Of a stretch of 64,000 nucleotides of DNA, positions 44,436-61,865 are shown one piece after another. The notes under the pieces are model-generated. The model made no database searches. It was not told the DNA's origin and saw only the letters and a list, made by a program, of their open reading frames with translations. The first letter of the stretch is position 1; each line of letters begins with the position of its first letter. Origin of the DNA: an uncultured delta proteobacterium (GTDB lineage Bacteria > Desulfobacterota > Binatia > UBA9968); the NCBI GenBank assembly GCA_963803415.1, contig CAWDMI010000006.1, positions 92,399 through 156,398 on the forward strand, read 5' to 3'. A program made the translations under genes and the position numbers.

Positions 44436-44657
44436 GATCACAAAGCGGGGGAATCTAATTCAACAGGCAGGAAAAAGCAACCAGGTAGAGCGCTGAGGGC
44501 CTGTATGGAGGTCCCGCTTCGTCCCTGCAACGACTGTAGAAATACCCCTCAGAAGGGCCTCTTGCCAGAGGTTAGGGTTTTCTCCTACAATCGCCGACCG
44601 TGGTGGAACTGGATTTTCATAGCGGCCGTGTGAGGAAACAATAGGCCATAGAACCCG

Positions 44658-45641
44658 ATGCGAAACGATCAGGTCAGCCGGCAGTGGCATTTGCTCCGGC
44701 GGTTAGAGGGTTCTCGGGGAGTCACCCTGCAGGAACTCGTTGACGGCCTGCCGGAAGACTTCCCCAAGAATTCCCGCACAATCCGGCGCGACCTGGAGGC
44801 GCTTAGTGAAGTTGGGTTTCCTCTCTACACCGAGCGCGCCAATGGACAAACGCGCTGGAAGCTCATGGAGGGGTTCCGGAACATCCCGGCGCTCGGCTTC
44901 TCCGCGACCGAGCTGATGGCCCTTGTTTTCAGCCGCAACCTTCTGCGGCCCTTGGAAGGCACCGAGATCCAAGCGTCTCTTTCTTCAGCGCTGACCAAAG
45001 CGGCGGCGGCCTTGCCGCCCCAGGGCCACGAGTATGTCCGTGACATGGAAAAAGTCTTTTCCGTGGGGTTGGGTCCACATAAGAGCTACCGCCAACACAA
45101 AGAAACCATTGACCCTATCTCGCAAGCGATCTCGCAAGCAAAAACGGCGCAGATGCGGTATTTTTCCGCCTCACGCAACACTACGGCTCGGAGGGAGGTC
45201 GATCCGTATCGCCTTTGGTATGCGGCAGGCGGCCTCTATCTGATCGCTTACTGCCATCTCCGTAACGACGTGAGAATGTTCTCCGTCGAGCGTATCCGCT
45301 CTATCACGCTCACGGATCATCCCTATCAGCTCCCTTTGGGCTTCGATGTGGAAGAGTATGTTCAAGACGCGCTCATGGTTATGCGCGGTCGGCGAATAGA
45401 CGTGGAGCTTTTGTTTTCAAAGACGGCAGCGGCTTGGGTGAAAGACAAGCTCTGGCATCCAAGTCAGCAAACCAGTTTATCTAGGGATGGACGGTTGCGG
45501 ATGGCGCTGAAGGTGGCTGATACGGATGAGTTGGTTGGATGGATCTTGAGCTTTGGCAGCCAGGTCCGCGTCGTTGGGCCCGATAAATTGAGGCAGAAAG
45601 TCAAAGAAGAAGCCGGAAGAATAGTGAGTTCAAAAGTTTAA
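44658..45641 (+). CDS. WYL-domain transcriptional regulator (wHTH-WYL-WCX)
   Basis: RTIRRDLEAL HTH; RREVDPYRL...LYLIAYCHLRNDVRMFSVERI; WILSFGSQVRVVGP. Confidence 0.93.
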   Translation: MRNDQVSRQWHLLRRLEGSRGVTLQELVDGLPEDFPKNSRTIRRDLEALSEVGFPLYTERANGQTRWKLMEGFRNIPALGFSATELMALVFSRNLLRPLEGTEIQASLSSALTKAAAALPPQGHEYVRDMEKVFSVGLGPHKSYRQHKETIDPISQAISQAKTAQMRYFSASRNTTARREVDPYRLWYAAGGLYLIAYCHLRNDVRMFSVERIRSITLTDHPYQLPLGFDVEEYVQDALMVMRGRRIDVELLFSKTAAAWVKDKLWHPSQQTSLSRDGRLRMALKVADTDELVGWILSFGSQVRVVGPDKLRQKVKEEAGRIVSSKV

Positions 45642-45786
45642 CGGTTCAAAGGTTCAACGACCGATGCAGAATTTTTGAACTCTTGAACCCTTGAATTTTC
45701 AACGAGCGGATTTTTGAACAGCTTGAACTTTTGAACTCTGGGACCTCGAACTTCTTTTAGAAGTTGAACCTTTGAACTTTTAAACC
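45628..45786. repeat. Degenerate 8-bp tandem repeats: GTTCAA-core x4, then inverted TTGAAC-core x~10
   Basis: GTTYAA at 45628, 45636, 45644, 45652; TTGAAC at 45675, 45683, 45714, 45723, 45731, 45764, 45772. Confidence 0.85.
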
Positions 45787-45804
45787 AAAACGGTAGGAGG
45801 GCAC

Positions 45805-46248
45805 ATGGCAGCAAAATATTTCGAAGATTTGGAGGCCTGGAAAGAAGCCCGGCGTTTAACCAATAAGATTTATGCCGCTACACGTTCCCCTGGTTTTTCA
45901 AAAGACTTTGGTCTGAGAGATCAGATTCAGCGCGCCGTGGTGTCAATCATGTCGAATATCGCTGAAGGGTTTGAACGAGGAGGGAATCAAGAATTCGTCC
46001 AGTTCCTCTACATCGCCAAAGGGTCATGCGGTGAGGTACGATCACTGCTTTACGTAGCCCTAGATCAAGGATACATCACGCGTGAACTGTTCGTTGAAAT
46101 GTCCAACTCGTCCAAAAGGCTGTCGGGCATGCTGGCCGGTCTGATCGACTATCTAAAAGGAAGCCGCATGCGGGGGGAAAAGTATAAGAAACCGGAATAT
46201 AAATCTTTGCGGGAAGAGCTGGAAGAGCTGACAAAGCAAACACCTTGA
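45805..46248 (+). CDS. Four-helix-bundle protein (23S rRNA-IVP / bAvd-like, TIGR02436-type)
   Basis: FEDLEAWKEAR, DFGLRDQIQRAVVSIMSNIAEGFER, FLYIAKGSCGEVRS; AGGAGG RBS. Confidence 0.93.
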   Translation: MAAKYFEDLEAWKEARRLTNKIYAATRSPGFSKDFGLRDQIQRAVVSIMSNIAEGFERGGNQEFVQFLYIAKGSCGEVRSLLYVALDQGYITRELFVEMSNSSKRLSGMLAGLIDYLKGSRMRGEKYKKPEYKSLREELEELTKQTP

Positions 46249-46378
46249 AGCCTTTGAACGTGTTTGCTGTTGAGCCCTTAAACGTTTGAACGGCATTTAT
46301 GTTAAACTTTTGAACCACTAACCGATGGAACCCTTGAACCGTTAAAGCTTTGAACCCCAATTTTGAACGTTTGGAACG
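46245..46378. repeat. Degenerate 8-bp TTGAAC-core tandem repeats
   Basis: Cores at 46254, 46270, 46278, 46286, 46302, 46310, 46326, 46334, 46342, 46350, 46363, 46372. Confidence 0.85.
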
Positions 46379-46656
46379 ACAAGGTCGACTTCGTTGTGCG
46401 CAAGGACACCCCATACCGTCGAAGGGAATTCTCCAGGAGGAGAAGGGTTTCGATCGACGATCAGGAGGTTTATGTTGTAGCCGCGGAGGATTTGATCCTG
46501 TCAAAGCTTGAGTGGGCAAAGGATTCCAGGTCGGAAGTTCAACTAACCGACGTTCGAAACCTGCTTCGGTCCGTCAAACGACTTAACCGCCGCTATCTCG
46601 CTCGCTGGGCGAAGCAGCTAGGCGTTGAATCCCTCTACCGGGAGGTTATGCGGTGA
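46379..46656 (+). pseudogene. 5'-truncated nucleotidyltransferase-fold (DUF6036-like) TA component
   Basis: KVDFVVRK...AAEDLILSKLEW...QLTDVRNLL is the C-terminal half; the catalytic GS/DxD N-terminal half is absent, with the repeat tract in its place. Confidence 0.65.
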
Positions 46657-46955
46657 AAGACACCTCGGATGAAATCGACAAAAAGTTTCACAACATGCTG
46701 CTGGCTCGCTCCGGCGAGGAGCGTTTGAAGATGGGTTGCTCGATGCACGCGACTGCGCGCGCGTTAGTCATAGCCTCTGTCCCTCAAAAGGACGCGGTTG
46801 CAGTGAACCGGGCGTTGTTTCTGCGCTTTTACGGCGACGAGTTTGAGCCCAAAAGGCGTAAAAGAATCCTTCGGGCCTTGCACAAAGCCGCCGGGAAGAA
46901 GGGGCAACAGAGACAAAAGGTGACAGAAAAAGAAAAAAAACTTTTTAGATCGTGA
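46653..46955 (+). CDS. Small hypothetical protein, probable partner of the nucleotidyltransferase
   Basis: GTGA overlap; MKDTS...RSGEERLKMGCSM...LFLRFYG. Confidence 0.65.
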   Translation: MKDTSDEIDKKFHNMLLARSGEERLKMGCSMHATARALVIASVPQKDAVAVNRALFLRFYGDEFEPKRRKRILRALHKAAGKKGQQRQKVTEKEKKLFRS

Positions 46956-47045
46956 CTTTGAATCTTCGTTCCGCGGGGTGTGTCAAGTGCCTGGGTCGAG
47001 GACAAAGCGCACAGTGGCAGCGAACCGCCAAATGGAAATAGGTAT

Positions 47046-47063
47046 TACCCAATTAATTGGGTA
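47046..47063. promoter_or_regulatory. Perfect 18-bp palindrome TACCCAATTAATTGGGTA, possible operator
   Basis: Self-complementary; lies in the long AT-rich intergenic region upstream of the helicase. Confidence 0.45.
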
Positions 47064-47149
47064 GTGAATTAGGTAGCGGCAACATGGGATAAGATAATCA
47101 CATCACGAAAAGCCGATGTGATAAGAACTCAGTAGGGCCTTTAAATTTC

Positions 47150-47246
47150 GTAAACGATTTGAACGGAGCGCCTGTCTTGAGCGTAGGGAAGCGAAGTCGA
47201 CGGAAAGCGATTGAACGTATTGAACGATTGGAACGATTTGAACGGA
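47150..47246. repeat. Orphan 9-bp TTGAACG repeats interrupted by a REP-like half element
   Basis: ATTGAACGT ATTGAACGA TTGGAACGA TTTGAACGG; internal CCTGTCTTGAGCGTAG...GTCGACGG. Confidence 0.65.
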
Positions 47247-47258
47247 AGTCGTTCGGAT

Positions 47259-47305
47259 TGACCTCGGATGTCAAAAAAAATCAAAGCGCGTGACCTTATG
47301 TGTCA
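47259..47305. promoter_or_regulatory. Two TGAC-N7-GTCA inverted repeats, candidate WYL operator
   Basis: TGACctcggatGTCA (47259-47273) and TGACcttatgtGTCA (47291-47305), 32 bp apart. Confidence 0.5.
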
Positions 47306-47720
47306 ATCCCTTGTTGTATAAGGTTTGCGAATGAGGAAAGAAAGGTTGCATGGCCATCGTGGATTTGGCGTTTGATTGACCGGCAGCAAGGTTTCCGTGG
47401 ATCACGGATACGCTCTCTATTCGGCGATAAGCCGGCTTTTGCCGGAGATTCATGGAGCAGGAAACATTGGCCTAGATCCACGCAGGGTGCACGTGCGACC
47501 AAACGGGGCCCGACACTTTTTTCCAGCAAAAATTCCCTTGTGAGATTCGGGCCATGTCGCTAAAATGCCTCAAATCTCAGAGGTGGCAGTTTCGGCTCTT
47601 TGCCTTCTTTCCGCTTTCAGCTTTGATTATTCATCCTTGCCTTCATGCCGGAGTCTCCGAACAACAGTCGGTTGATTGCGTGGAATTGCGGCCAACCATA
47701 GTTTCTTCCGGGAGAAGTTC

Positions 47721-50700
47721 TTGGTAACTCTTTCTATCCAGCCGGGACAGCTTCTGACTGGCTCTCTTTTCAACGAGCCGATGCGGGTGGAGACCGTCAG
47801 GTCCAATGGCCCTGACACGTGGGTGTTGGGTCTCGTTGGTCTCCAGTCGGAAAGGTTCAGGAATGTCACTCTTACGGACAAAGATCTAGCGACACTTAAG
47901 ATCCAGGAGACGACTTGTTCTTATGACGGTGATGGGCAGCTTCTTCGGCTCGGATTGCAGGCCTACGCATTAGGAATAGCCTACGAATTTGATCCTTACT
48001 TTGGCCTTTCCATTTCTCGCGTCGATCCCTTACCGCATCAGCTCGAAGCCGTTTATGACTACCTCCTGAAAGTCGCCCGGGTACGATTTCTGCTGGCTGA
48101 CGATGCAGGAGCGGGGAAGACCATCATGGCGGGGCTGCTTATCCGTGAGCTCAAGCTCAGGGGCCTTGCCGAGCGAATCCTGATTGCCTGCCCATCGAAT
48201 CTGACCTTTCAATGGCAACGGGAGCTCAAGGAAAAATTTGACGAGAAGTTCCTTGTCATGAAAGGTGGCGACATCCGCGATCAGTTCGGCGTAAACCAGT
48301 GGATGGAGCAAAAGCAAGTCATCACGTCGCTTGATCTTGCCAAGCGTACCGACGTCTTACCCGGGTTGCGACAGGTCCGCTGGGAGCTTGTTATCGTGGA
48401 CGAAGCCCACCGCATGTCAGCCTCAGATCCGGAGCACAAGACGCAGCGTTACCGGCTCGGTGAGCTGATGCGCGACACCAGCGACCATCTACTGCTTCTC
48501 ACCGCGACGCCCCATCGCGGCGACCCGGAGAACTTCTCATTCTTTCTCCAGTTGCTGGATGCGGATGCCTATGCTGATGTGAAGTCGATTCGCCAGGCGA
48601 TGGACCGGCGCCGCGCTCCCTTCTACCTACGTCGCACCAAGGAAGCCATGGTCTATTTCCCGGAGCGCCAGACTGACGGCTCATGGATTGCGCGGAAGAT
48701 CTTCACCAAGCGCATTCCCAAGACGGTTGATTTCGAAATAGACGGGGCTGAGTTCGAATTGTACCGAGATGTTACCAATTTCGTGAGACGGCAGAGCGCT
48801 AAGGCGGCGGCACAAGGGGAAGATCCAAGGGCTAGGGCGATTGGTTTTCTAATGGCCTTGTACCAACGTAGGCTTGCCTCCAGCACCTACGCCGTCCGCC
48901 ATTCTTTGGAAAATCGCGCTCGCAGGCTCGAGGATGGCCTCAAGCGAGCCCAGGAACTCGCTCGTCTTGCACCGCCAGAACTTCCCGACCCAGAAGAATT
49001 CGAAGAGATGGAGGAAGCGGAGCGGGAACGGCTGGAGGAAATGCTCGATGCGATCACCCTGTCAGGGAATGCCGAGCAGGTCCAGGAGGAGATCGGCGAG
49101 CTGAAAAGACTTGCGGCACAAGCCCAAGCTGTTGAGGACCCGGGTTCTGAGGCAAAACTCTCCCGCCTTAAACAAATCCTTGAGCAGGAGGGATTCTTTG
49201 ATCAGCCCGAGAAGAGGCTTCTTATCTTCACGGAATTCAAGGACACACTCGACTACCTCGTTAATCGACTCAAGTCCTGGGGCTTTCGCGTCGGATTTAT
49301 CCACGGCGGAATGAAACCTGGTTCGCGTGATGAAGCGGGCACGCGACTCTGCACCGAGCAACAGTTCAAAGACGGCGAGATTCAGGTGCTTGTTGCCACC
49401 GAGGCGGCAGGAGAAGGTATCAACCTCCAATGCTGCCATATCCTTTTTAACTACGACATCCCGTGGAACCCGAACCGCTTGGAGCAGCGCATGGGGCGCA
49501 TCCACAGATATGGGCAGCAGTACGATTGTCTCATCTTTAACTTCGTCGCCACGAACACGATCGAGGGGAAGGTGCTGCAGCGCCTGTACGAAAAGCTTGG
49601 CGAGATCCGTGACGCCCTGGACGACGATGCCGTCTTCAACGTGGTTGGCGAAGTTCTTCCCGCCGCTCATGTTGAACGCGTCCTGCGCGACTACTACTCC
49701 GGCCGCCTTGGAGATGCGGATCTGGAAGACCGCCTGCTCAAGAACGTCGATGAAAAGCAGTTTCGCAACATCTGCCAAAACGCGCTTGAGGGACTGGCGG
49801 CAAAGAAGCTAAATCTTGAGATGCTCATCGAGCGCCGAGCCAGGGCTCAGGAACGAAGAGTCGTCCCCGAGACGATTGCGCGCTTTATTCGCGAGACCGC
49901 AGACTACGTGCCCCTCACGCTCAAGCCTGTTCCATCCCTGCCGCATACCTTTGAGCCGATCAGGACTCCCACAACCTTGAGGCGCTACGAGAGCGAGACG
50001 GATTGGAGACTGCCCGCGCTCGCCACAAGGTATCCACGTCTTTCCACCGACCGTGAAACAGCAGACAAAAATCACCTTGAATGGGTCACTCCCGGACACC
50101 CACTCTTCGAGGCTCTTAGACGCCACGCCCTCAACCAGTCACGGCCAGTCTTCGCCAAGGGGGCTTGCTTCTATTCTCTGCTCCACGAGCGTCCGGCACG
50201 GCTCGACTTCTACCGCGCCCGCGTTGTGGACGGCGTAGGTAATGTCATCCATGAACGGCTTTTTGTGGTCGAGCTTGGGGAGACCGGTGATCCTTCCCTT
50301 CGTGAAGCGAGCCTTCTTGGGGACTGCACGCCCGCCGAGCCAACCAAGAATCTGCCTGCGGTCGCAGCACTACCAGAAGCAACCGCATGGCTCAATCAAC
50401 ATGCCCTTACTCCATTCCTAGAAGAGGTACGCGCCGAGCGCCTAGCTGAAATCGATCGCATCGCAGCCCACGTGGAGCTTTCGCTCACCGAGCTTTTACA
50501 GAAGGCCGACGAAGAGATCGGCAGAGCCGGAGCAGAGATTGAGAAGAAGGTTGGAGGGGCAGAAGGTCGCTTTGCCCAGGCTGAAGCCCGTCACGCAGAA
50601 CTGATGGAACGCCGGGAAAAGCGGCGCCAGGAGCTGGAGCGCCAGAAAGCTTTGTCGCTTCAAGCTGTCGAGCGTTTGGCCAGCGTGCTGATCCTTCCCC

Positions 50701-51152
50701 ATCCGGAACGAGAAGCGCCCGAAGTGAGACGATTTCGGCCCGATCCGGAGGTCGAGGAGGCCGCCATGCGCGTCGTCATGGAATTTGAGAGAGCCCAAAA
50801 CCGTCAGGTCTATGATGTGCATGAAAAGAATCTCGGCTACGATATCACCAGCCTCGATCTCAACTCCGGCGAGCTTCGCCTCATCGAAGTGAAGGGCATC
50901 GGCGCCTCAACCGGCACCGTGCTTCTCACTCCCAACGAACGCCGCGTTGCCGAAGACCGGCGAGACTGCTACTGGCTCTACGTTGTTACCGACTGCAATG
51001 CCCAGTCGAAGCTGCAAGACCCCATCAAAGACCCCGCCCGCTTTCCGTGGCATGAAGTGAAGAAGGTGGAACATTATTATCTTTCTGTCGATGCTTTGAC
51101 GCAGCCGATGCAGGTTCGTGAAGACCCGGAAACTTATGGAGGGAGACAGTGA
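47721..51152 (+). CDS. SNF2-family helicase with C-terminal DUF3883 (NO VEIN-like) nuclease domain
   Basis: [37 protein letters not shown]; GYDITS...IEVKG...LTPNE. Confidence 0.93.
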
Positions 51153-51700
51153 CTAAGCCTGATGGCAGATCCGACGTTCCTATCGAGCGAATCGAGAGCG
51201 CGATTCTTTTTGTCCGAGGGCACAAAGTGATGCTGGATTCTGACCTGGCGGCGCTTTACGGGGTCACGACGTTCAATCTCAACAAAGCGGTGAAGCGGAA
51301 CACGGATCGCTTTCCCGAGGACTTTATGTTCCAACTAACGGCTGAAGAAGCCAGCAGTTTGAGATTCCAAATTGGAATGTCAAAGGCTAAGGGGCGAGGG
51401 GGACGGCGGTATTTGCCTTACGTGTTTACGGAGCAGGGTGTGGCTATGCTATCCAGCGTGCTTCGGAGCAAGCGGGCGGTCCGGGTCAACGTAGAAATCA
51501 TGCGGGCCTTTGTTCGCTTGCGCCGGATGCTTGCGTCCAACGAAGAACTGGCCCGGAAGCTCGCTGTTCTGGAAAAGAAATACGATTCCCAGTTTAGAGT
51601 TGTCTTCGAAGCCATTCGAGAACTCATGGCGTCACCGACGCCAAAGCGTAGAAAGATCGGTTTTTTGGTAAGCGAGACGGCAGCGAAATATGGGCATTGA
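51149..51700 (+). CDS. ORF6N (KilA-N-like) DNA-binding domain protein
   Basis: [18 protein letters not shown]...[16 protein letters not shown]...[13 protein letters not shown]. Confidence 0.92.
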
Positions 51701-51713
51701 AAAGTGGACATCA

Positions 51714-51956
51714 AACGAACGCCGCGTCGCCGAAGACCGCCCTACCTGCCGCGCAGGGCACCTGTGTGCCGTCGCACGGCCACAGGCAGGCGGCGCAGGC
51801 AAGCGCGACTGCTACTGGCTTTACGTTATTACGGGTTGCAAGTCACAAGCCTGTCTTCAAGAGCCAATCAAAAATCCCGCTCGCTTCCCGTGGCATGAGG
51901 TTAAAAAAGTAGATCACTACTATTTGTCGCTGCATGCTTTGACCCAAACTATGCAA
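51714..51956 (+). pseudogene. Diverged duplicate of the helicase DUF3883 3' end with a 63-bp in-frame palindromic insertion
   Basis: NERRVAEDR[21 aa]RDCYWLYV...[18 protein letters not shown] matches the helicase at 50934-51113. Confidence 0.88.
51741..51803. repeat. Miniature nested palindromic (REP-like) insertion
   Basis: CCTACCTGC...GCAGGCAAG outer arms with inner CCTGTG...CACAGG; absent from the intact helicase copy. Confidence 0.65.
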
Positions 51957-51999
51957 CTCTTAACGATCCTGCTGAGAAAAGAACATATACAGGAGGGTT

Positions 52000-52593
52000 A
52001 TGATGCCCAAACGAGAACCTGAAATAACTGCTCTTGAAGCGGTTTATGCTGCATTGAAACCCCTAGAGCCCGAAGTGCGAAGGAAGGTGCTGGCGTCTGT
52101 CTATTCACTTTTAGAGGTACCCTCTCAGGAACCATCGCAGCAACACCCACCCGGAAAGGACGGCTCCCTCCCTAAGCCACCAACGGATGGCGGCCGCGCA
52201 GAAAGTTCCCGTCCGGTTGGCCTAACCGAACTAGTCAGGGAAAAGAGCCCGGGTACGAACGCTCAGCGAATCGTCCTTTTTGCGTACTACCGTGAGAAGC
52301 ATGAAGGGATCTCCCGGTTCAGCAGTGATGATCTCAAGGAATATTTCGGGAAGGCTAGGGAGCACCCGCCCCAAAACTACAGCCGCGACTTTCGCGAGGC
52401 AGTCAAGAGAGGCTGGATTCACGAAGACGACTCAGATTCTTATATAACTTCCAAAGGTATCGAGGCAGTGGAGGCAGGATTTACCGGCGAGCGCAGATAC
52501 AGGGGACGTCCCACGCGGACATCGTCCCGCCGTCAAACCAGAAGGCGAATTGGAAAGCGGGCTAAGGAAACAAAACGTCAACGCTCTCGATGA
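52000..52593 (+). CDS. Hypothetical protein: N-terminal helical hairpin, probable C-terminal winged helix, basic tail
   Basis: AGGAGG RBS; IVLFAYY...DLKEYF...PPQNYSRDFREAVKRGWI...YITSKGIEAVE wHTH-like pattern. Confidence 0.65.
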   Translation: MMPKREPEITALEAVYAALKPLEPEVRRKVLASVYSLLEVPSQEPSQQHPPGKDGSLPKPPTDGGRAESSRPVGLTELVREKSPGTNAQRIVLFAYYREKHEGISRFSSDDLKEYFGKAREHPPQNYSRDFREAVKRGWIHEDDSDSYITSKGIEAVEAGFTGERRYRGRPTRTSSRRQTRRRIGKRAKETKRQRSR

Positions 52594-52662
52594 TATTGGC
52601 CAAACCTGCGCCGATAGCGCCACAGCTGGCAACCATAATTTTGCGTTTTGCAAGGCGCCTCA

Positions 52663-53529
52663 ATGATTGATGACCAATTCATCTTGGGTATAGAACGTCT
52701 CCGCGATGAGTTAGGAGATCTCAAGTCTGGTTTGCGTGATAGGTATCGGTCTGCGGACCGCCAGGTGACAGCAGAGGATCTGAAGGAAAGTGCGGCACGT
52801 ATAGCCGAGAAGTGGATGGTTGGTTGCGGTCCTGTAATCGAGCGGTTGGGGATCATTTCTTCGGACTACCTGGCGGATCTACATGTTCATTTTCAAAGGC
52901 TACTGACATTTTCTGAGCGGGCCTCAAGACGCAAACTTTATGAGGTCGAAATTAAAGCGGTTTTGAATCGCATTACGGGAGAACTAATTATTCCCCTTAA
53001 ACGATTTTCTAGGCAGGGAACAATTGCGCAACCCGCCCATCCGGTTGAGTCAGTGCAGCCACAACTGGCAAATGCAACTGGCGGAAAAAACGGCGATGAA
53101 TTTCAGCCGACCGCTTTTGTGGCGCATTCTTTTTCTTCTAATGACAGCGTTGTGATCGACTGCGTTATCGGAACACTAAGCGCTTTAGGTGTCGCTGTTA
53201 TAACCGGAGAGAAGCCAAGAGCCGACCGTATTTCAGAAAAGGTTAAAAGACTCATAGATGGGCAATACCTATTTATCGGGGTGTTTACACAGAGGGAGAA
53301 AATTGCCCGCCGAAAAGAATGGACTACGAGCGCGTGGCTGATCGACGAAAAGGCTTACGCGGTCGGAAAGGGCAAGAAACTTATTCTCTTAAAAGAAGAT
53401 GGGGTTCAAAGTATCGGGGGCATTCAAGGCGATTACCAGTTTGTTGATTTTTCGAGAAATCGACTTCACGAGATACCTATTGCACTCTTGAACATCCTGC
53501 ATGTGACAGCACGGGGGCTTCGTTCATAG
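52663..53529 (+). CDS. Protein with N-terminal helical domain and C-terminal TIR-like / nucleoside-deoxyribosyltransferase-like domain
   Basis: AFVAHSF, ISEKVKRLID...FIGVFT, SAWLIDEKAYAVGKGKKLILLKE (Glu at the TIR catalytic position). Confidence 0.7.
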   Translation: MIDDQFILGIERLRDELGDLKSGLRDRYRSADRQVTAEDLKESAARIAEKWMVGCGPVIERLGIISSDYLADLHVHFQRLLTFSERASRRKLYEVEIKAVLNRITGELIIPLKRFSRQGTIAQPAHPVESVQPQLANATGGKNGDEFQPTAFVAHSFSSNDSVVIDCVIGTLSALGVAVITGEKPRADRISEKVKRLIDGQYLFIGVFTQREKIARRKEWTTSAWLIDEKAYAVGKGKKLILLKEDGVQSIGGIQGDYQFVDFSRNRLHEIPIALLNILHVTARGLRS

Positions 53530-53563
53530 CAATACTATAATAGTTTTCACAATCCAGATTTCA

Positions 53564-56500
53564 ATGATTCCCAAAGAATGTAAGCGGCTGGCGGAGGTGG
53601 ATTTTCCGATTGCGGTGGTGAGCAAACATGCCGCGAAGGAGAAGTCTATCCGCTACGGCCATCCGTCAACGCTGCATTTATGGTGGGCACGGCGGCCGTT
53701 GGCCGCGTGCCGCGCGATGTTGCTAGGGCTTCTTCTGCCTGATCCTTGTGATCAGCACTGCCCCGAGGAGTTTAAACAAAAAGCTCATGAGCTTTTGCCA
53801 AAGGTGCAGGGAGCAGTGGGCCCTAAGGACGAGGACCTTAGAAAATCTCTCCTCAAATTCATTGGTGACTTTGCTAACTGGGATCTCTCGTCCGACCGCA
53901 CTTACCTGGAAGTTTCACGCGAGCTCGTAAAAGCAGCTCATTCAGAGGAAACCCCGCTCGTCGTTGATCCGTTTGCCGGTGGCGGTTCGATCCCGCTCGA
54001 GGCATTGCGACTTGGTTGCGAAACGTTCGCGAGCGACTTAAATCCGGTCGCCTGTTTGATCCTCAAGGTGATGTTGGAGGACATTCCCAGATACGGAGGG
54101 CAAAAGGTAAAAGTAAAAAAACAAAATGGGGAAGAAGTCGGGGCTGATGGCTTAGCTGACGCACTAAGAATCGTTGGGAAAGACATCAAAGAAGCAGCCG
54201 AGAAGGAACTCTCCGAGCTCTACCCAAAAGACCCCGATGGCGCCACACCCATCGCCTATCTCTGGGCGCGCAGTGTGCGCTGCGAGTCGCCGAACTGCGG
54301 CGCGGAAATACCGCTCGTGCGCTCATTCTGGCTCTCCAAGAAAGCAGACAGGAAACGGGCGCTTAAGTATCGGGTAAAAAGGCAGGAAGAGAAAACTCCA
54401 GAGATCGAATTTCAAGTTTTCGAGCCGCACACTGATGCCGACGTGTCCAAGGGGACAGTGTCCCGAGGGAATGCTGCATGCCCAGCATGCAACATGGTGC
54501 TGAGAGTCGATCGGGTACGCGGGCAGCTCACCGCACAGAGAGGTGGTGCGGACGTGCTGTTTGACACCAAGGGTAGCCGTATGGGCGGCGCGCGGTTGCT
54601 GGCGGTGGTTCTGATTAAGGCCGGCGATCCGGGTCGTGACTACCGACTGCCGACGGAGTGCGATTACGATGCGGTGCGAAAAGCGCAGGCACGTGTCGTG
54701 AAGATACTTGACAAGTGGGAACGCGGTGGGAAGCATGGCCTTTGCCCTGTCCCGGATGAATCGTTACCGCCGATTGGGACGCTGGGCTTCCGCGTGCAAC
54801 GGTACGGCATACTGCAGTGGGGCGACCTCTTTACGGCGCGACAGAAGGCGGCGCTGGTCATGCTGAGCACAATAGTGGCTCGATCCTCACACAACGGCGC
54901 GGCCAACGAGATTGCCGGCCTGGCTTTAAGCCGACTCACAGACATCTACAACGCGCAAGGTGTTTGGGAGACTACAAAGACTCAGGTCAGAAACCTATTC
55001 TCCCGGCAGGCGATCGCAATGCGCTGGGACTTCGCTGAGGCAAGTGCTTGTGCGGAACAGGCGGGGGACTACCAAACCACCTTCGAGACTATGGTTCGAG
55101 TTGCAGAAAGGCTGGCGGCGTTCAACAGCAGTGGCCAGGTGCAGCAAGCTGACGCCGCAAGCTCCTCGTTGCCAGACGAGACAGTGCCCGTCTGGTTCAC
55201 TGACCCACCATACTATGATGCTATTCCGTACTCGGACTTAGCTGACTTTTTCTACGTCTGGCTCAAACGCGCGCTGCCGAACGATGCGCTGTTGCGGGAT
55301 TCATCCGATTCTGCGAACCCTTTAACTCCGAAGTTGCACGAGGCAGTGCAGGATGAGACTAAGCGCGACAACGGCCGTGTGAAAGACCGGGCGTGGTTCG
55401 AGGAGAAGATGGCGAAGGCCTTTGCCGAAGGACGGCGCGTCCTTCGCGAGGACGGCATCGGCTCCGTGGTGTTCGCTCACAAGACGACTGAAGGTTGGGA
55501 GGCGCTCCTTTCGGGTATGATCCGCGGTGGCTGGACGATTACGGGCTCTTGGCCGATCGCCACTGAGATGGCTACAAGGATGCGTGCTCGCGATTCCGCC
55601 GCCCTTGCTACCAGCGTTCACCTCGTGTGCCGGCCTCGCACCCACGAGAAAATCGGTGATTGGCAGGAGATGCTGCGCGAGTTACCCAAGCGAGTCGGGG
55701 ACTGGATGGAGCGTCTGCAATCGGAAGGTATCCGCGGGGCAGACTTGGTTTTTGCTTGCATCGGGCCGGCGCTGGAAATCTACAGCAGGTATTCAAGAGT
55801 CGTTGATGCTGAGGATCGAGAGATTCCGCTGGGCGGTGATCCGGAGGCGACTGAACCGCATAAGCGAGGCTATCTCGCCTACGTGTGGGAGGCTGTTGGC
55901 CGTGCTGCGTTTGGAGCAGGTTCTTGGAACTGCTGAGGCTGGGGCACGCAACGGCGCGGCGGGAGCTTTGGAAGAGGATGCACGGTTGACGGCGCTTTTC
56001 TTGTGGACGCTACAAAGCACGAATGGCGAACAGGCAGAAGGCAATAGGCAAGAGGCAATAGAAAAAGAGTCTGAAGGGGATGACGACGAGGAGGAAGAGA
56101 CAAGTACAAAGGGCAAGAAGAAGAAAGGTCTGACTCTAGTATTCGATGTCGTGCGGCGGTTTGCGCAGCCGCTGGGGATTCATCTCGATAGTTGGGAAGA
56201 CCGGATCATTGAGACTGACAAAGGAATTGTTCGGCTGCTTCCCGTTGGGGAGCGTGGAGAGCAGCTTTTCGGTGATGACGGAGCCGACATGGTGGCTGAC
56301 TGGCTGGAGCGGGAGCCGACGGGCGCGCTTCAATTGGCACTGTTTCCTGATCGGGGCGAAGCCGCGCCCAAAGTAAAAAGTAAAAAGGTAAAAGGAAAAA
56401 GAGGCGCTGCTAAGGAAGTAAGCACGAAGCAGGAGGCGACGACCTTGGACCGAGTGCACGCGGCGATGCTGCTCCAGTCGACCGGGCGAGCGAACGCTTT

Positions 56501-56636
56501 GAGGGCCTTGCTGAAGGCTGAGCAGGATCGCGGTCCGGATTTTCTCCGTTTGGCCAACGCCCTGTCCGCGTTGTATCCTAAGCAGAGTGAGGAGAAGCGG
56601 TTACTTGACGCTATGCTGCTGGCCGTACCGAGGTAA
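53564..56636 (+). CDS. DUF1156 adenine-specific DNA methyltransferase; apparent +1 frameshift at TTT 55910-55912
   Basis: LHLWWARRPLA, motif I DPFAGGGSIP, Zn insert CESPNC/CPAC, motif IV TDPPYYD; removing one T restores GRAA-LEQVLG and continues to 56636. Confidence 0.88.
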
Positions 56637-56657
56637 GAAAATAGGAGGAAGCGAAAC

Positions 56658-56873
56658 ATGTTTGACCGAATCACTTTTGACCCCCAAATCATGGGAGGCA
56701 GGGCTTGCATCCGTGGGATGCGGATACCAGTTTCTGTGATTGTTGGTCAAATCGCTCATGGTGCTACGTTCGATGAGATTCTTGAGGGCTATCCCGACCT
56801 GGAAAAAGAAGATATCCAACAGGCAGTCGAGTATGCCGCTTGGCTAACCCAGGAAGAAATTCACTTCCGTTAG
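56658..56873 (+). CDS. DUF433 antitoxin-like protein
   Basis: RITFDPQIMGGRACIRGMRIPV...EILEGYPDLEKEDI. Confidence 0.92.
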   Translation: MFDRITFDPQIMGGRACIRGMRIPVSVIVGQIAHGATFDEILEGYPDLEKEDIQQAVEYAAWLTQEEIHFR

Positions 56874-56883
56874 GAATCGGGAG

Positions 56884-57243
56884 GTGCGATTTCTTGCCGA
56901 CATGTGCATGGATGTGCGGGTCGCGACCTGGTTGAACACCCAAGGGCACGAGGCCACGCACCTGCGGGACGAAGGGCTTCAGCGAATGGCGAACGGCGGG
57001 ATTTTTGAAAAGGCTATCGCCGAGTCCCGCGTAGTCGTGACATTTGATCTCGATTTCGGCGAGATCGTGGCCTTTACTAAGGGACGTAAGACCGGAGTCA
57101 TTTTATTCCGCCTACGAAATACTCGAACATCCCATGTAATTCAGCGCCTCTCCGCCGTGATTTCCGAATGCGCGGATACTTTGACGAGGGGTGCTATTGT
57201 GATTGTCGAAGAGAGCCGGCATCGGGTGAGAGAGTTTCCATAG
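56884..57243 (+). CDS. DUF5615 PIN-like (VapC45-like) toxin
   Basis: MRFLADM, RVVVTFDLDFGE, GVILFRL. Confidence 0.88.
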   Translation: MRFLADMCMDVRVATWLNTQGHEATHLRDEGLQRMANGGIFEKAIAESRVVVTFDLDFGEIVAFTKGRKTGVILFRLRNTRTSHVIQRLSAVISECADTLTRGAIVIVEESRHRVREFP

Positions 57244-57350
57244 ATCGTGTTTGACGAAATAATCCTGCGTCTCAAGAACTGATAAGCCTGAAGCAGAAAG
57301 GAATGAGCTGGTCGCCCAGACAAAGCAGGGAAGTAAGTCACTGAGCAATT

Positions 57351-60098
57351 ATGGACCCGTGGTACAGAGTCGTAACCCCGAGGAAGGAAGTCAGGGAAGG
57401 GCGATCCTTTAATCCTGACGAGTTCGCTATCGCGCTTGAGCAGGTTGTGGCGGGCACGGCGCCTGAAGACTATACAAATCCGGAGCAGTTCTTTTCCCGC
57501 ACGTGCTTCACCCGGGCGCTCAGAGATCACGCGGGGATGGTTCTCAAGCGTTTGGCGGGGAAAACCGAGAACACAGCTCCCGTCCTTACATTGATCACCC
57601 AGTTCGGCGGCGGCAAGACTCACACGCTGACAGCGCTCTACCATTTGGCTAATAACCCGAAAGCATCAGCCGGCAATGCAGGCGTCTCTGAACTCATGAA
57701 GCAAGCTCAACTTGCCGAATTGCCTAAAGCTAAAGTGGCGGTTTTTGTGGGTAACGCCTGGGATCCTCAAGCCGGGAAGGAGACCCCGTGGATCGATGTC
57801 GCGCGGCAGCTCGCCGGCGACAAGGGCGTGGAACTGCTAGGTAGCGCCGCAAAGTCCACGCCCCCTGGGACCGAAGCTTTGGGGCGGGTCTTCGAGGCAG
57901 CCGGAGATTCCGTCCTGATTCTTTTCGACGAGGTTCTTAATTTTCTCAATCGACACCGTCCCATGGCCGACCTGTTTTATGCATTTCTTCAGAATCTGAC
58001 GGTAGCGGCGACCGGCACGAAGCGGGCGGCTGCGGTAGTGAGTCTCCCGCGGAGCCAAGTCGAGATGACGCCCTCGGATGAGGAATGGCAGGACAGAATC
58101 ACCAAGGTCGTGCGGCGAGTCGCCAAAGATCTAATCGCGAACGACGAAAGCGAGATTAGCGAGGTGGTTTGCCGCCGGCTCTTTGAAAACCTCGGAAACG
58201 AGCGGGTCAGGAAAGCTGTGGCCAAGACGTATTCCGATTGGTGTTTCGATAGAAGAGCGCAGCTCCCGCCCGAGTGGACGGCTGTAGACACGGCGGCCAC
58301 GGAAGCCAAGGCGCGAGAATACCTGCGGACTCGTTTTGAGACCTGTTATCCCTTTCATCCCGCGACACTCTCGGTCTTCCAGCGTAAATGGCAGGCGCTT
58401 TCCCACTATCAACAGACGCGCGGCACCTTGGCCATGTTGGCCCAATGGATTTCTCTCGCCTACAGGGAAGGCTATCGCAAGGCCCGGACCGAACCTCTGA
58501 TCACACTTGGGTCAGCGCCGCTCGATGTATCCGAATTCCGTGCCGTCGTGCTCGGGCAGTTAGGAGAATCTAGGCTGGTCGCGGCGATAGAAACGGATAT
58601 CTCCGGGACAAACTCCCATGCGAACGCCCTTGATGCAGACGCCAAAGGATCACTCCGGGAAATTCACAGGCGCGTAGGGACGACGATTCTCTTCGAATCG
58701 TCGGGAGGCCAGGTGGAAAAGGTAGCTCACCTTCCAGAACTACGATTTGCCCTCGGAGAACCTGAGGTCGACAACACTTCGATTGACAACGCCGCACACG
58801 CGCTGGAAGGAAAGAGTTTCTTCATAAGCCGGGTGGGTACAGACGGTTTCAGGATCTATCACAAGGCGACAATCCGAAAGGCCGTCAGTGATCGGCGGGC
58901 ATCACTGGACGAAGCTACGGAAATCAAACCCACTGTGGAGTCTTTAGTAAAGAGGGAATGGGAAAGAGGCGCAACGATTCCGATCGCTCCATTCCCTCAG
59001 GATGGTACGGAGATCTCCGACTCTCCTCGAATGACTCTTATCCTGATGAACCCGGACGATGAATGGAGGGGCGACGGTCAGATAAAGGATTGGATCATCC
59101 AATGGACAAAAGAGCGAGGGAAATCCCCGAGGCTTTACCCCGGATCGCTTGTCTGGTGCATAAAAAAGCCCGGCCGTGAATTACGCGACAAAGTAGAATT
59201 GTGGCTGGCGTGGAGGCGGGTTGCCAAGGAAGTCGCGGATGGAACTTTAGGAGCGGATTATGATCGGGCGGATCGCGCCGATATTCAGGCGAATGCGACC
59301 ACGGCGGAGGGGGCAGCGAAAGATGAGGTCTGGGCCGGTTACAGGTATGCAGTTTTAGCCGACCAACGGGAGAAGGACGGCCTAAAAGTGATTGACTTGG
59401 GGGCGGGCCATGCAAGCGGCGGCGAGACCCTTTGTGGACGTGTGGTTGCTGCCCTGAAATCAAATGCGTTACTCAACGAATCCGTGGGCGCCGGCTATAT
59501 CGATAGGAACTGGCCGCCGGCATTGAAAGAATCGGGGGCGTGGCCATTGTCGAGCCTGCGTCAGAGTTTCCTCAACGGTTCGCTCACGAGGCTGCTCGAT
59601 CCCGATGCAGTGTTGAAGGGGAAGATTGTCGAGTTCGTGACCAACGGAGAGCTTGGCCTCGCGTCCGGAGCGAAAGCTGACGGAACATACGAGCGATTCT
59701 GGTTCGACGAGCCGGTCTCCTCAGACGAGGTTAGCTTTGAGGCGAATGTCTTTCTTTTGACGAAAGCAAAGGCGAAGGCGCTCAAGACAAAGCCAGTGAT
59801 CATCGAGCCACCCCCTGAAGACAAGCCACCGGAAGAAAAGAAGGAAGAGAAGGAGAAGCTCACCGAGGAGCCGCAGCTCGGCAGGACTACCCTTCGCCTC
59901 AGTGGAACGCTACCCCCTGAAGTCTGGAACCGCCTTGGTACGAGGCTGATAACGAAGCTCAGATCGGGGAACGATCTAAAGATAGATGTGGCGTTTTCCG
60001 TCTCGGTGGATGCCAAATTAGCAGCGGGCTTCGAGGCCGAGTTGCGGCAGATACTGGAAGATCTAGGCCTGACAGACAAAGTCAGGATCGAAAGGTAA
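57351..60098 (+). CDS. DUF499 AAA+ ATPase (BrxC/PglY-related)
   Basis: EFAIALEQV, Walker A TQFGGGKTH, Walker B LILFDE, YPFHP, QQTRGTL. Confidence 0.9.
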   Translation: MDPWYRVVTPRKEVREGRSFNPDEFAIALEQVVAGTAPEDYTNPEQFFSRTCFTRALRDHAGMVLKRLAGKTENTAPVLTLITQFGGGKTHTLTALYHLANNPKASAGNAGVSELMKQAQLAELPKAKVAVFVGNAWDPQAGKETPWIDVARQLAGDKGVELLGSAAKSTPPGTEALGRVFEAAGDSVLILFDEVLNFLNRHRPMADLFYAFLQNLTVAATGTKRAAAVVSLPRSQVEMTPSDEEWQDRITKVVRRVAKDLIANDESEISEVVCRRLFENLGNERVRKAVAKTYSDWCFDRRAQLPPEWTAVDTAATEAKAREYLRTRFETCYPFHPATLSVFQRKWQALSHYQQTRGTLAMLAQWISLAYREGYRKARTEPLITLGSAPLDVSEFRAVVLGQLGESRLVAAIETDISGTNSHANALDADAKGSLREIHRRVGTTILFESSGGQVEKVAHLPELRFALGEPEVDNTSIDNAAHALEGKSFFISRVGTDGFRIYHKATIRKAVSDRRASLDEATEIKPTVESLVKREWERGATIPIAPFPQDGTEISDSPRMTLILMNPDDEWRGDGQIKDWIIQWTKERGKSPRLYPGSLVWCIKKPGRELRDKVELWLAWRRVAKEVADGTLGADYDRADRADIQANATTAEGAAKDEVWAGYRYAVLADQREKDGLKVIDLGAGHASGGETLCGRVVAALKSNALLNESVGAGYIDRNWPPALKESGAWPLSSLRQSFLNGSLTRLLDPDAVLKGKIVEFVTNGELGLASGAKADGTYERFWFDEPVSSDEVSFEANVFLLTKAKAKALKTKPVIIEPPPEDKPPEEKKEEKEKLTEEPQLGRTTLRLSGTLPPEVWNRLGTRLITKLRSGNDLKIDVAFSVSVDAKLAAGFEAELRQILEDLGLTDKVRIER

Positions 60099-60146
60099 CC
60101 ACTGCCCAACGGTTCCCAAACTTCGTACGGGAAGGGAGATTAAACG

Positions 60147-60617
60147 ATGGCAGATTGCCTTGTGTATTGGAAATACTTTAGAGACGAAGCGTACGAGGAT
60201 GAAGCTAATGCTTTTACTCAACACTGGTTTACAAGAAGTCCTTACTTTTTTGACCAAATAAAACCCGGTAATAACCTCTGGGTTGTCGTTTCAGGCGGGC
60301 GGGAGTTCCCACAGGAATGGCGCTTGCTTCAAAGAATTTTGGTTCGAGCACTAAAGCCAGAAAGAACAGATCGTCCTTACCATGCAATTGGCGACACTAA
60401 GAAAAGCCAGATATTCGATATTCGAAAGCAGAAAGATTTAGCGCCGTTTCTGCGGAAACTGAAATTCGCCAGTGGAGTAAGAATCACCGCTAAAGGGAAA
60501 TTGATAGGCCGCTCGCTGCAATCGATAAGGCCATTAGCTGAGGAGGACGTGGAACTCCTCGAAAACTATACTAGGGGGTTAAAGAAAGCCCCAGATTTCA
60601 CTGGTTTGGTTAGCTAA
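60147..60617 (+). CDS. Hypothetical protein, possibly PUA/EVE-like
   Basis: LVYWK...QIKPGNNLWVV...SLQSIRPLAEEDVELL pattern; GGGAG RBS. Confidence 0.55.
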   Translation: MADCLVYWKYFRDEAYEDEANAFTQHWFTRSPYFFDQIKPGNNLWVVVSGGREFPQEWRLLQRILVRALKPERTDRPYHAIGDTKKSQIFDIRKQKDLAPFLRKLKFASGVRITAKGKLIGRSLQSIRPLAEEDVELLENYTRGLKKAPDFTGLVS

Positions 60618-60628
60618 GACAGGCGTTC

Positions 60629-60823
60629 ATGGACGACTTCGAAAAGAGGCGTCGCTTCCTGATGTTTTTGGATGATCGAGTCTTTCATCCGATTCTAGAG
60701 GGGTCGAAGGGGTCGAGTCCGCTTTTACAGGAGATTTACGGTGAAATAAATGTATCCACGTTGTTGACTAGCTGGAATAACTGGTTTAGCGGAAAAACTT
60801 TTAGGGCCGGCTTGCACGGATGA
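60629..60823 (+). CDS. Short hypothetical ORF, possibly a degraded gene
   Basis: 64-aa ORF immediately after 60617; no recognisable motif. Confidence 0.3.
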   Translation: MDDFEKRRRFLMFLDDRVFHPILEGSKGSSPLLQEIYGEINVSTLLTSWNNWFSGKTFRAGLHG

Positions 60824-61237
60824 ATCAAGCTGTGGACGACTCAGCACGAAGGACCTGCACCAAACAGCTATCGACGTTCGATAGCCGTCGTGAGAAGGCA
60901 GCACCGATGACCACTGCCAAGTAGATAAAGCTTCTTGGCGACCTAGAGAATCATCTGCCGGCCCAATCAAAGAGAAGGCCGCTTTAGGTTCTTTCTCCGG
61001 ATTCGATGTTTCAAGTTTGCGGAACGACCGAGTGGCTAGCGCTTCAGCGATCTCTCCATGGCGTGCACGCGCTACGAGACTTACACAAAGCGATGAACGT
61101 GGTTAGAGCGCCGGTCAGATGAACGTGAACGTGTTCGAGAAATGATCAGAGCAATCGGAAATCAGATCGTGGTGACGGCGCCGGTCTCGGTCAGGCCGAC
61201 CGACGGCGCGTCACTTCAGCCAACAGATATGCCTTCC

Positions 61238-61360
61238 CTAGTCTTCTAATTTCACGCTACCTTCCGCCTTTGATTTCTTCTCCGCCACGTACTTCCGCAT
61301 AGCAAGGCGCCTCTTTTGTCTCTTGCGCCTATGGGTATTTTTTCGTGCGTCCTGCTTCAT
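61238..61360 (-). CDS. Small highly basic protein (40 aa)
   Basis: AAGGAG RBS, ATG 61360; MKQDARKNTHRRKRQKRRLAMRKYVAEKKSKAEGSVKLED. Confidence 0.5.
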   Translation of the reverse strand: MKQDARKNTHRRKRQKRRLAMRKYVAEKKSKAEGSVKLED

Positions 61361-61554
61361 GCTTATTCTCCTTGTGCGCCGGGATAAACCGGTGGGTTGT
61401 TTGCGGATGGGAGTTCCGCGCGGCAAAGGGTCAGTCGCCAGGATGTCTGATCGTACGAATATTGACACTTTCTTTTCTCGTTTGCCAGGGGGAGTGCATG
61501 GCCGGGCGGGCACGAGTTTCGCTAGGGCTCGCGACAAGCCGCCCTTGTTTTTTG

Positions 61555-61708
61555 GGGTCTTCGGGCTTTCCTGTGAGCAGGACTCGCAGATTGCACCGCG
61601 GAGGCGCGGGGGACGCGGAGTAAAGAGTTCTTGGTTAAAAAATCTCCGATCTCTGCGAACTCTGTGCCTCCGTGGTGAATACTTCTTCACAGAAACCCAG
61701 AACAACCG
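61555..61708. repeat. MITE/REP-like non-coding element
   Basis: Imperfect terminal IR (GGTCTTCGGGCTTTCCTGTGA / TCACAGAAACCCAGAACAACC) around inner IR CACCGCGGAGGCGCGG...CTCTGTGCCTCCGTGGTG. Confidence 0.6.
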
Positions 61709-61865
61709 TTTTTTTTCGCCTGGGCGCGGTTGATCCCGTCGCGCTTTGTTGTTTTGGGTTCCGGTGTATTCCTTCCGTTCGGTTTACCAGGGCTTCTAGC
61801 CGGGCGACCGAGCAAACGGGTTGCGGTCTTGACTGCCCGGCATCGGGAAGCTAGGAAAATAGACT

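Follow-up and report, generated by a model that had tools for sequence, protein, structure and literature searches.

An Hma operon with a frameshifted methylase gene, stacked cargo and core-gene remnants in a Binatia genome

The locus and its three-gene core

The window analysed here is a 64,000-nt stretch from an uncultured delta proteobacterium of the Binatia (GenBank assembly GCA_963803415.1, contig CAWDMI010000006.1; G000:C6:92399-156398 in our numbering, where genome G000 comprises 7.05 Mb on 7 contigs), and our subject is a locus within it built around three genes, hmaA, hmaB and hmaC, for a helicase, a methylase and an ATPase. These core genes (A, B and C below) stand in that order on the plus strand, with three genes and a remnant reading frame in the A-B junction and two genes in the B-C junction (Table 1). 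When the open reading frames (ORFs) were scanned against PADLOC 2.0.0, NCBIfam 20.0 and Pfam, an Hma model was the top PADLOC match of each core gene: HmaA for the helicase at 579 bits (4.9e-174), against 108 for PLD_Helicase; HmaB for the methylase at 399 bits (7.5e-120), against 153 for DUF1156_MTase; and HmaC for the ATPase at 308 bits (3.5e-92), against 71 for DUF499. Judged by its sequence, the locus is the Hma system of PADLOC, that is, Type-1 BREX-related (BR). Payne et al. 2021 named Hma for its helicase-methylase-ATPase order (PMC8565338), and PMC12839542 renames it Type-1 BR and points to previous connections with EVE domains. Since the system and the slots for its cargo are already published, the locus itself is ordinary. 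The first-pass annotation of this DNA had put its named genes on the plus strand at positions that the ORF map and the three libraries bear out. It had also taken the locus for a little-studied, BREX-related and DUF3780-less variant of the 'restriction-like' system of DUF499, DUF3780, DUF1156 and SNF2 that Gao and colleagues reportedly described in 2020; the BREX relationship stands, whereas the variant gives way to a named system, Hma, for all three genes.

HmaA ends in a NOV_C domain (residues 1026-1112; Pfam 4.7e-21), and its Walker A, DEAH, motif VI, GYD, ExK and PNE motifs are kept in 70-71 of 71 relatives. Conserved residues 1056, E1071, K1073 and E1088 (1158-aa numbering) were equated with the defence residues of the Halomonas protein through motif order, not direct alignment. 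HmaB has motif I (DPFAGGGS) and motif IV (DPPY, the latter in 38/38 relatives), and the GGGKT of HmaC is kept in 22/22; the Pfam scan found no HEPN_Swt1 domain on this HmaC. DUF3780 and PglZ were not found in the locus, in line with the first-pass reading for DUF3780; their lone genome matches (PF12635 at C2:2332706-2333212 and PF08665 at C2:542724-543242) both lie on contig C2 and suggest a separate Type-2 BR system and a BREX-like locus. A second, canonical Hma is present at G000:C1:118200-130000 (L127), with a HEPN_Swt1-fused ATPase. There, hmaB is only 710 aa long and 233 nt remain ahead of hmaC, so this copy also lacks its C-terminal part, and an hmaB 3' remnant resembling the window's clade sits behind the hmaC of this second Hma.

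At 55910-55912 the hmaB of the window reads three T's, one more than the frame of its relatives requires, a +1 frameshift at a site across which 46 related copies keep one frame. The resulting product has 790 aa and retains motifs I and IV, with about 240 C-terminal residues lost. A search for same-strain reads over the site found none: four runs matched only 5-8% of words, and the contigs compared came from other strains. Across 84 orthologue pairs with the same-genus genome G002 (34,216 aa) there are 1 frameshift and 4 internal stops, a scarcity that somewhat favours a real mutation in hmaB. All genes being intact was a curation filter in Payne 2024 and not part of the family definition (bioRxiv 10.1101/2024.01.29.577857). 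Liu et al. 2024 report that Halomonas HmaA suffices to block T4, an effect that depends on SNF2 motif VI and the NOV_C nickase, and that hmaB adjoins 85.3% of hmaA, leaving 14.7% without it nearby (PMC11232893); loss of hmaB therefore need not silence the locus. Large insertions also occur in related hmaB genes, of about 300-800 nt at a recurrent site (residues ~270-295) in L033, L041, L058, L062 and L118, and of 1.7 kb at residues ~157-168 in L095.

Table 1. Features of the locus, in window coordinates
Feature	Position	Strand	Basis or remark
Whole block missing in G002	44484..61848	.	Comparison with same-genus genome
WYL-WCX regulator, weak N-terminal HTH	44658..45641	+	Pfam WYL 7e-21, WCX 1e-18, HTH_11 0.0012 (under cut-off)
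Degenerate ~8-nt TTGAAC-type array, left of four-helix-bundle gene	45628..45794	.	Repeat search
Four-helix-bundle protein, 23S_rRNA_IVP / TIGR02436	45805..46248	+	Pfam 3e-36, NCBIfam over cut-off
Degenerate TTGAAC-type array, right of four-helix-bundle gene	46242..46385	.	Repeat search
Nucleotidyltransferase, C-terminal half only	46363..46656	+	NTP_transf_5 weak
100-aa partner of nucleotidyltransferase	46653..46955	+	No family match
hmaA: SNF2/Helicase_C and C-terminal NOV_C (= DUF3883) PD-(D/E)xK nuclease, intact	47676..51152	+	PADLOC, Pfam
ORF6N gene, PADLOC candidate PDC-S05	51149..51700	+	PADLOC 2.6e-58, Pfam 2e-33
Degenerate hmaA 3'-end copy (~last 75 codons)	51714..51959	+	Inside 110-aa open frame 51690-52022, behind ORF6N
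196-aa partner of TIR-fold gene, winged-helix-like by sequence pattern	52003..52593	+	185 homologues
288-aa protein: N-terminal helical bundle, C-terminal TIR/NDT-fold domain	52663..53529	+	432 homologues
hmaB: DUF1156 amino-methyltransferase, +1 frameshift	53564..56636	+	PADLOC
DUF433, predicted antitoxin	56658..56873	+	Pfam 5e-26
DUF5615 PIN-like, predicted toxin of bacterial toxin-antitoxin (TA) pair	56884..57243	+	Pfam 5e-24
hmaC: DUF499 AAA+ ATPase, intact, without optional N-terminal HEPN	57351..60098	+	PADLOC
156-aa putative PUA/EVE-like modified-base reader, stand-alone	60147..60617	+	218 profile hits

Gene-end remnants between changing cargo

We compared the window with the best 80 of 558 related loci (72-80% HmaA identity, many phyla) and 8 close-kin stretches. 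At least 250 nt lie in 48/53 complete A-B and 34/36 B-C junctions; the 192 cargo ORFs fall into 100 families, and the cassettes are distinct in 45 of 46 loci at A-B and in 23 of 34 at B-C. This turnover supports the hotspot for accessory genes that had been proposed at first pass, and identical content was not seen. In published surveys, insertions occur in 66.5% of Hma loci (PMC11232893) and embedded genes in 931/1,485 Hma systems, with protection from 7 of the 9 embedded candidates tested (Payne 2024, bioRxiv 10.1101/2024.01.29.577857).

Pieces of the core genes themselves also lie between the cargo genes. The degenerate copy of the hmaA 3' end in the window is 74% identical to its own hmaA over 153 nt and 84% identical to the intact hmaA of L129; its mismatches are distributed 9/2/29 over the three codon positions, and it holds a frame-keeping, hairpin-like insert of about 60 nt (51741-51803). 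L129 runs hmaA, HEPN, nucleotidyltransferase, ORF6N end, hmaA tail and then the same 196-aa/TIR pair as the window. We scanned DNA profiles of 60-codon windows along hmaA, hmaB and hmaC over 889 kb of sequence from 90 loci, after masking real gene starts at contig edges (L063, L079), genuine but frameshifted genes (in L060 and L095) and, in L065, an unrelated helicase. All 31 remnant hits, found in 20 of the 90 loci, are on the plus strand: 13 A tails, 11 B heads, 4 B tails and 3 C heads. The outward ends, A head and C tail, gave none in this search, and the 21 interior windows gave only two minus-strand hits of one B window, even though several interior windows are better conserved than the gene ends.

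With the last 75 residues of each gene as query, a copy of the gene's own tail was found downstream of 9/63 hmaA, and a copy of its own head upstream of 0/63. For background we used 1,291 of the 1,589 ORFs of at least 400 aa in the window's own genome, where 8 ordinary genes have such a tail copy (odds ratio 27). Mismatches to the own gene fall mostly on third codon positions (51/35/173 for A tails; 24/14/63 for B and C ends combined), and when the A tails are compared with 78 intact ones, 7 of 10 lie closest to a foreign tail and 3 to their own. In L062, L041 and L079 the head of the downstream gene is fused to the tail of the upstream gene, two of these with an overlap of ~12-17 nt.

A composite linker running from the ORF6N 3' end into an hmaA tail recurs before different cargo in three of the genomes compared (L114:4587-6336, L129:1400-1680 and window 51625-51955). 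Hairpin-like inserts of the form CCTGCC...GGCAGG occur in core-gene remnants of the window (51741-51803), L114 (4720-4757) and L112 (9222-9250); in the window and L114 the insert sits at the identical codon and the frame is kept. Gene-end copies are also seen outside Hma: at L240:2645-2722 a copy of a WYL gene 3' end (81% over 98 nt) lies between stacked nucleotidyltransferase cassettes, at G000:C1:399733-401229 (minus strand) a TIR-like gene, an own-tail copy and small TA-like genes come after a gene whose sequence reads as hsdM of type I restriction-modification, and a second gene with TA-like cargo and a tail copy lies at G000:C4:545987-547609 (plus strand). Our literature search found no account of gene-end remnants at embedded defence genes, and a term search of the main text of Payne 2024 found no mention of them.

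Regulator, cargo modules and the surrounding block

In G002, the flanking major facilitator superfamily and glycosyltransferase genes stand 338 nt apart, and similarity ends at 44484 and resumes at 61848, so about 17 kb are accessory, either gained here or lost there (one genome compared). The first-pass remark that no integrase or attachment site was seen holds, with no integrase among the scanned ORFs, no tRNA and no repeat joining the block ends. Near the right end, at 61554-61707, lies a REP-like inverted repeat with dozens of genome copies clustered on contig C3. That annotation did not include the four-helix-bundle gene, the truncated nucleotidyltransferase and its partner or the hmaA 3'-end copy at 51714-51959.

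'WYL-headed', another of its terms, is right for the position of the regulator and fails as linkage. WYL was not seen in 96 stretches around other hmaA nor in 108 upstream ORFs of 67 loci (Pfam at E<=1e-12, ORFs of 200-420 aa, with a phmmer positive control that spanned close orthologues only). At E<=1e-20, 31 of the 61 kin genomes have an orthologue of the window's WYL gene, with 61-82% identity for the best of them, and no hma gene was found in any of the 17 orthologue stretches fetched, four of which had from <1 kb to 1.6 kb of downstream sequence. Downstream of the orthologues stand type I Cas genes in 7 of these stretches and SoFic in 2. Within one WYL orthologous group the regulator is followed by CRISPR-Cas of types I-C, I-E, I-G/U and Myxan-type I-B, exchanged behind it (L244, L249-L254). 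Because such orthologues head CRISPR-Cas and other cargo, with none near hma, the WYL gene heads a variable defence slot. We rejected it as an Hma component; it is likely the regulator of a slot into which Hma moved. By analogy with BrxR (PMC13622015), WYL control of hma would be plausible. No conserved operator motif was found in 20 WYL upstream regions; a hairpin at 44556-44573 overlaps a promoter-like site at chance level, and promoter and terminator counts are at the level of shuffled sequence.

Behind the regulator, the truncated nucleotidyltransferase matches, at 78-80% identity, the C-terminal half of genes from L240 and L244, where intact copies (183-191 aa; weak DUF6036) stand with the 100-aa partner behind WYL; pieces of the partner occur in L257. 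The four-helix-bundle gene occupies the place of the missing N-terminal half and has further copies on C1; TTGAAC arrays stand on either side of it, the first 30 nt inverted. Many environmental contigs also carry the 9-nt TTGAACG-type array seen at 47153-47246. Paralogues of the ORF6N gene are several and scattered through the genome, and a literature search on ORF6N and four-helix-bundle mobility found nothing. The B-C slot holds DUF433 in 8 other loci, and DUF5615 is seen in 5 other loci.

The 196-aa and TIR-fold genes form a fixed pair. The 196-aa gene is directly upstream of the TIR-fold gene in 62/62 metagenome loci with room for it, and only 1 of 80 loci is near Hma. The first-pass TIR-like label is well supported: the predicted model of the 288-aa protein (mean confidence, pLDDT, 87.7) matches the nucleoside deoxyribosyltransferase (NDT) 6evs with Z 12.7 (root-mean-square deviation (rmsd) 3.2, 117 aligned), SARM1 with Z 11.0 (rmsd 2.8, 115 aligned) and ThsB with Z ~11, and 62 of 120 family members have a TIR_2 Pfam match. 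W225, D228 and E229 are invariant in the 120 sequences (motif SxWxxDE), and E229 is presumably the catalytic glutamate, going by the TIR motif. None of the 120 is matched in NCBIfam, the family was not found in viral contigs, and its PDB sequence search yielded nothing significant. For the 196-aa protein, profile searches of Pfam and PDB gave no useful match. Among 301 genomes of the phylum the TIR family occurs in 1, the window's own. A predicted complex of the pair is weakly supported, with a score of 0.60 against 0.00 for the best of 3 controls, partner pLDDT of at least 67 and at least 8% of contacts shared between runs; the mark for such complexes is reached by 116/157 solved and 2/215 mismatched pairs, at scores of 0.60 or less by 18 solved pairs and both mismatches. 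On our reading of the Pfam table, roughly half of the 26 longer loci scanned have neighbours tied to defence or mobility (a raw share, with no background rate), and these include ThsB-type TIR, caspase, Mrr, NucS, Shedu, SLATT, DUF4062, AIPR and integrases. The three-library scan found no ThsA-type effector or cyclase of Thoeris, CBASS or Pycsar among the locus ORFs, and no description of the pair was found in the literature. We predict that the pair is a defence module.

The last gene, behind hmaC, encodes a 156-aa protein that is probably a PUA/EVE-like modified-base reader, as judged from a model and its relatives. Fold support for this earlier label is weak (pLDDT 57.6; best Z 3.9, rmsd 7.0, 91 aligned), with most of 19 fold-match rows being EVE, YTH, ASCH, SRA or McrB-N type by their titles; the relatives support it better, as 26 of 34 long homologues are fused to a nuclease (HNH in 17, NOV_C in 9). 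No PUA-type Pfam match was found in 53 family members, a PDB profile search of the family matched the HNH part only (TagI, E 0.003), and Atlas matches are mostly unnamed. The start of the gene is also found behind hmaC in L112. Further right, 60629-61240 comprises an ORF of 64 aa plus non-coding sequence; it has no family match, is matched at 73% on C1 (485783-485886) and is probably a decayed gene.

Origin of the stacked cargo and likeness to known systems

We hold with good confidence that the locus is an Hma operon with a frameshifted methylase and an ATPase, in which passengers were likely stacked by recombination with other Hma alleles, and the remnants are likely scars of one-sided recombination between such alleles. 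One end of the DNA from a foreign allele would recombine homologously within a core gene, and its other end would attach through a joint that is short or illegitimate; this would give the order A, cargo 1, B head joined to A tail, cargo 2, B, with the A tail carrying start signals for the gene behind it. Homology-facilitated illegitimate recombination is documented in transformable bacteria (PMC6382021), and recombination in the flanks exchanges cargo at integrase-free hotspots (PMC5635113). By analogy with Halomonas HmaA, the intact helicase-nuclease would likely nick phage DNA; HmaB would mark self DNA, probably with N6-methyladenine, and HmaC would scaffold the scanning. The truncated HmaB may be inactive, leaving HmaA to act alone, and the cargo would be co-transcribed backup defence. 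More tentatively, and short of expecting it to hold, we propose that one-sided allele recombination embeds defence genes in Hma, hsdM and WYL anchors alike, leaving head-tail scars, and that the 196-aa/TIR pair is a stand-alone two-gene anti-phage system in which the partner binds and gates a TIR/NDT nucleosidase.

Several points weigh against this account. The clade lies far from the centre of the HmaA model, scoring 579 bits where the genome's second Hma (36% identical) scores 1,692, and the hmaB frameshift could be an assembly error. T4 grown in an HmaB-overexpressing host did not escape HmaA (Liu et al., PMC11232893), so self-marking by HmaB is unproven. The loci are related and the background is a single genome, which makes the p of 1e-8 for own-tail copies overstated. 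The outward ends are harder to test, with an A-head conservation of 0.56 and only 20 loci with sequence behind hmaC. Own hmaA is nearest for 3 of 10 tails (L099 at 96%), and several of the foreign margins are small. Tail copies also stand behind HsdM, the WYL orthologue in L240 and some housekeeping genes such as pyruvate kinase, so the process is not Hma-specific, and the scars fit one-step recombination and integration of a whole allele followed by deletion alike.

Other explanations have to be weighed against recombination between alleles. Decay of the locus, with hmaB a true pseudogene and the small genes selfish passengers in a neutral sink of little defence value, would account for a frameshift where assembly frameshifts are rare (1/84 pairs), for the truncated nucleotidyltransferase, for ORF6N and four-helix-bundle paralogues scattered in the genome and for the short hmaB (710 aa) of the second Hma. 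We think it unlikely, given that hmaA, hmaC, the WYL gene and the TIR pair are all intact and keep their catalytic motifs, that Halomonas HmaA protects alone (PMC11232893) and that embedded candidates protected in 7/9 tests (Payne 2024). The hmaA tails could instead be kept as translated linkers or mini-proteins, through translational coupling to the next cargo gene or binding to HmaA, since 10/11 A tails are in an open frame with an in-frame start near the 5' end and a stop near the native position, the hairpin-like inserts of the window and L114 keep the frame and mismatches show third-position bias. Yet the tails deviate at conserved columns in 24/173 cells against 35/2,139 in intact HmaA (inflated by alignment edges and a shared D-to-N variant), in-frame starts within 10-40 codons are probably common by chance and B-head and C-head remnants would need a separate explanation, all of which makes retention of this kind quite unlikely.

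Local tandem duplication of gene ends or of the operon, followed by deletion and with no foreign donors, fits the three tails that lie nearest their own hmaA and is also compatible with the head-tail fusions. Two-thirds of the own-gene mismatches, however, are at third codon positions, a bias that a neutrally decaying copy would not show; the window tail is closer to a foreign gene (84%) than to its own (74%), and the cargo flanking the scars differs and is not duplicated, so we regard duplication as improbable. As for identity, a variant of the Gao restriction-like system (Type-2 BR) without DUF3780, with another gene order and under WYL control, would share DUF499, DUF1156 and SNF2 with the locus, which gives weak matches to Gao-type models and has a WYL gene upstream on the same strand. 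Hma models nevertheless score 2.6-5x higher; the C-terminal NOV_C with no PLD/HKD match is Type-1 architecture, DUF3780 is on C2 and WYL is unlinked to Hma, which leaves the variant exceedingly improbable. Gao/Type-2 BR identity was rejected with NF042962/3/4 far below their cut-offs (107/1200, 211/1000 and 177/1100 bits) and no PLD family in the Pfam scan, and Type-3 BR identity was rejected on PADLOC and NCBIfam scores and on the position of DUF3780 and PglZ on another contig.

Payne et al. leave open how and why genes embed in Hma, and remnants of junction-facing gene ends offer a countable footprint of an integrase-free stacking route. If stacking by allele recombination is correct, the scars could show in which order cargo was gained and lead to new defence genes. 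Defence candidates that PADLOC 2.0.0, NCBIfam 20.0 and Pfam do not name are the 196-aa/TIR pair and the often nuclease-fused PUA-like family.

Comparable change of cargo that leaves partial copies of an anchor gene is known from the orphan-module arrays of CdiA, Rhs and MafB. As in the exchange described in PMC5635113 and PMC6382021, cargo here changes between conserved flanks without an integrase, and partial anchor-gene copies persist; unlike a double crossover in the flanks, which replaces cargo without a scar, the process has left cargo stacked and head-tail fusions in place. The locus agrees with described Hma (PMC8565338, PMC11232893) in order, single strand, SNF2-NOV_C/DUF1156/DUF499 composition and cargo in both junctions, and differs in its divergent clade, the frameshifted hmaB and the non-core WYL gene upstream and PUA-like gene downstream. 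With the Type-1 DUF499-centred BR systems of PMC12839542 it shares the tripartite core and the C-terminal PD-(D/E)xK helicase nuclease with its active-site motifs, without DUF3780 or PglZ; it falls in the subset without a HEPN-fused ATPase, and the C-terminal part of its methylase, which bears an HTH triad in that description, is out of frame. The Gao system (Type-2 BR) has the same three superfamilies; it needs DUF3780 and in most cases an HKD-helicase, and the locus has neither.

The non-core genes have their own counterparts. CapW is a WYL repressor that heads defence loci. An HTH-WYL-WCX gene likewise stands at the head of defence genes in the case of BrxR (PMC13622015), whereas in the window's orthologous group the genes that follow are mostly type I CRISPR-Cas, Fic or TA cargo. 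The embedded, co-oriented cargo resembles the HEC and PDC genes of Payne 2024, ORF6N being PDC-S05, whereas PADLOC 2.0.0 has no model that matches the 196-aa/TIR pair or the PUA-like gene. Relatives of the PUA-like protein carry HNH or NOV_C behind the same N-terminal domain, as in the EVE-HNH nuclease VcaM4I and the SRA-HNH nuclease TagI, with a weak EVE/YTH/ASCH fold match; the window copy, in contrast to those nucleases, is a lone domain without a PUA-type Pfam match.

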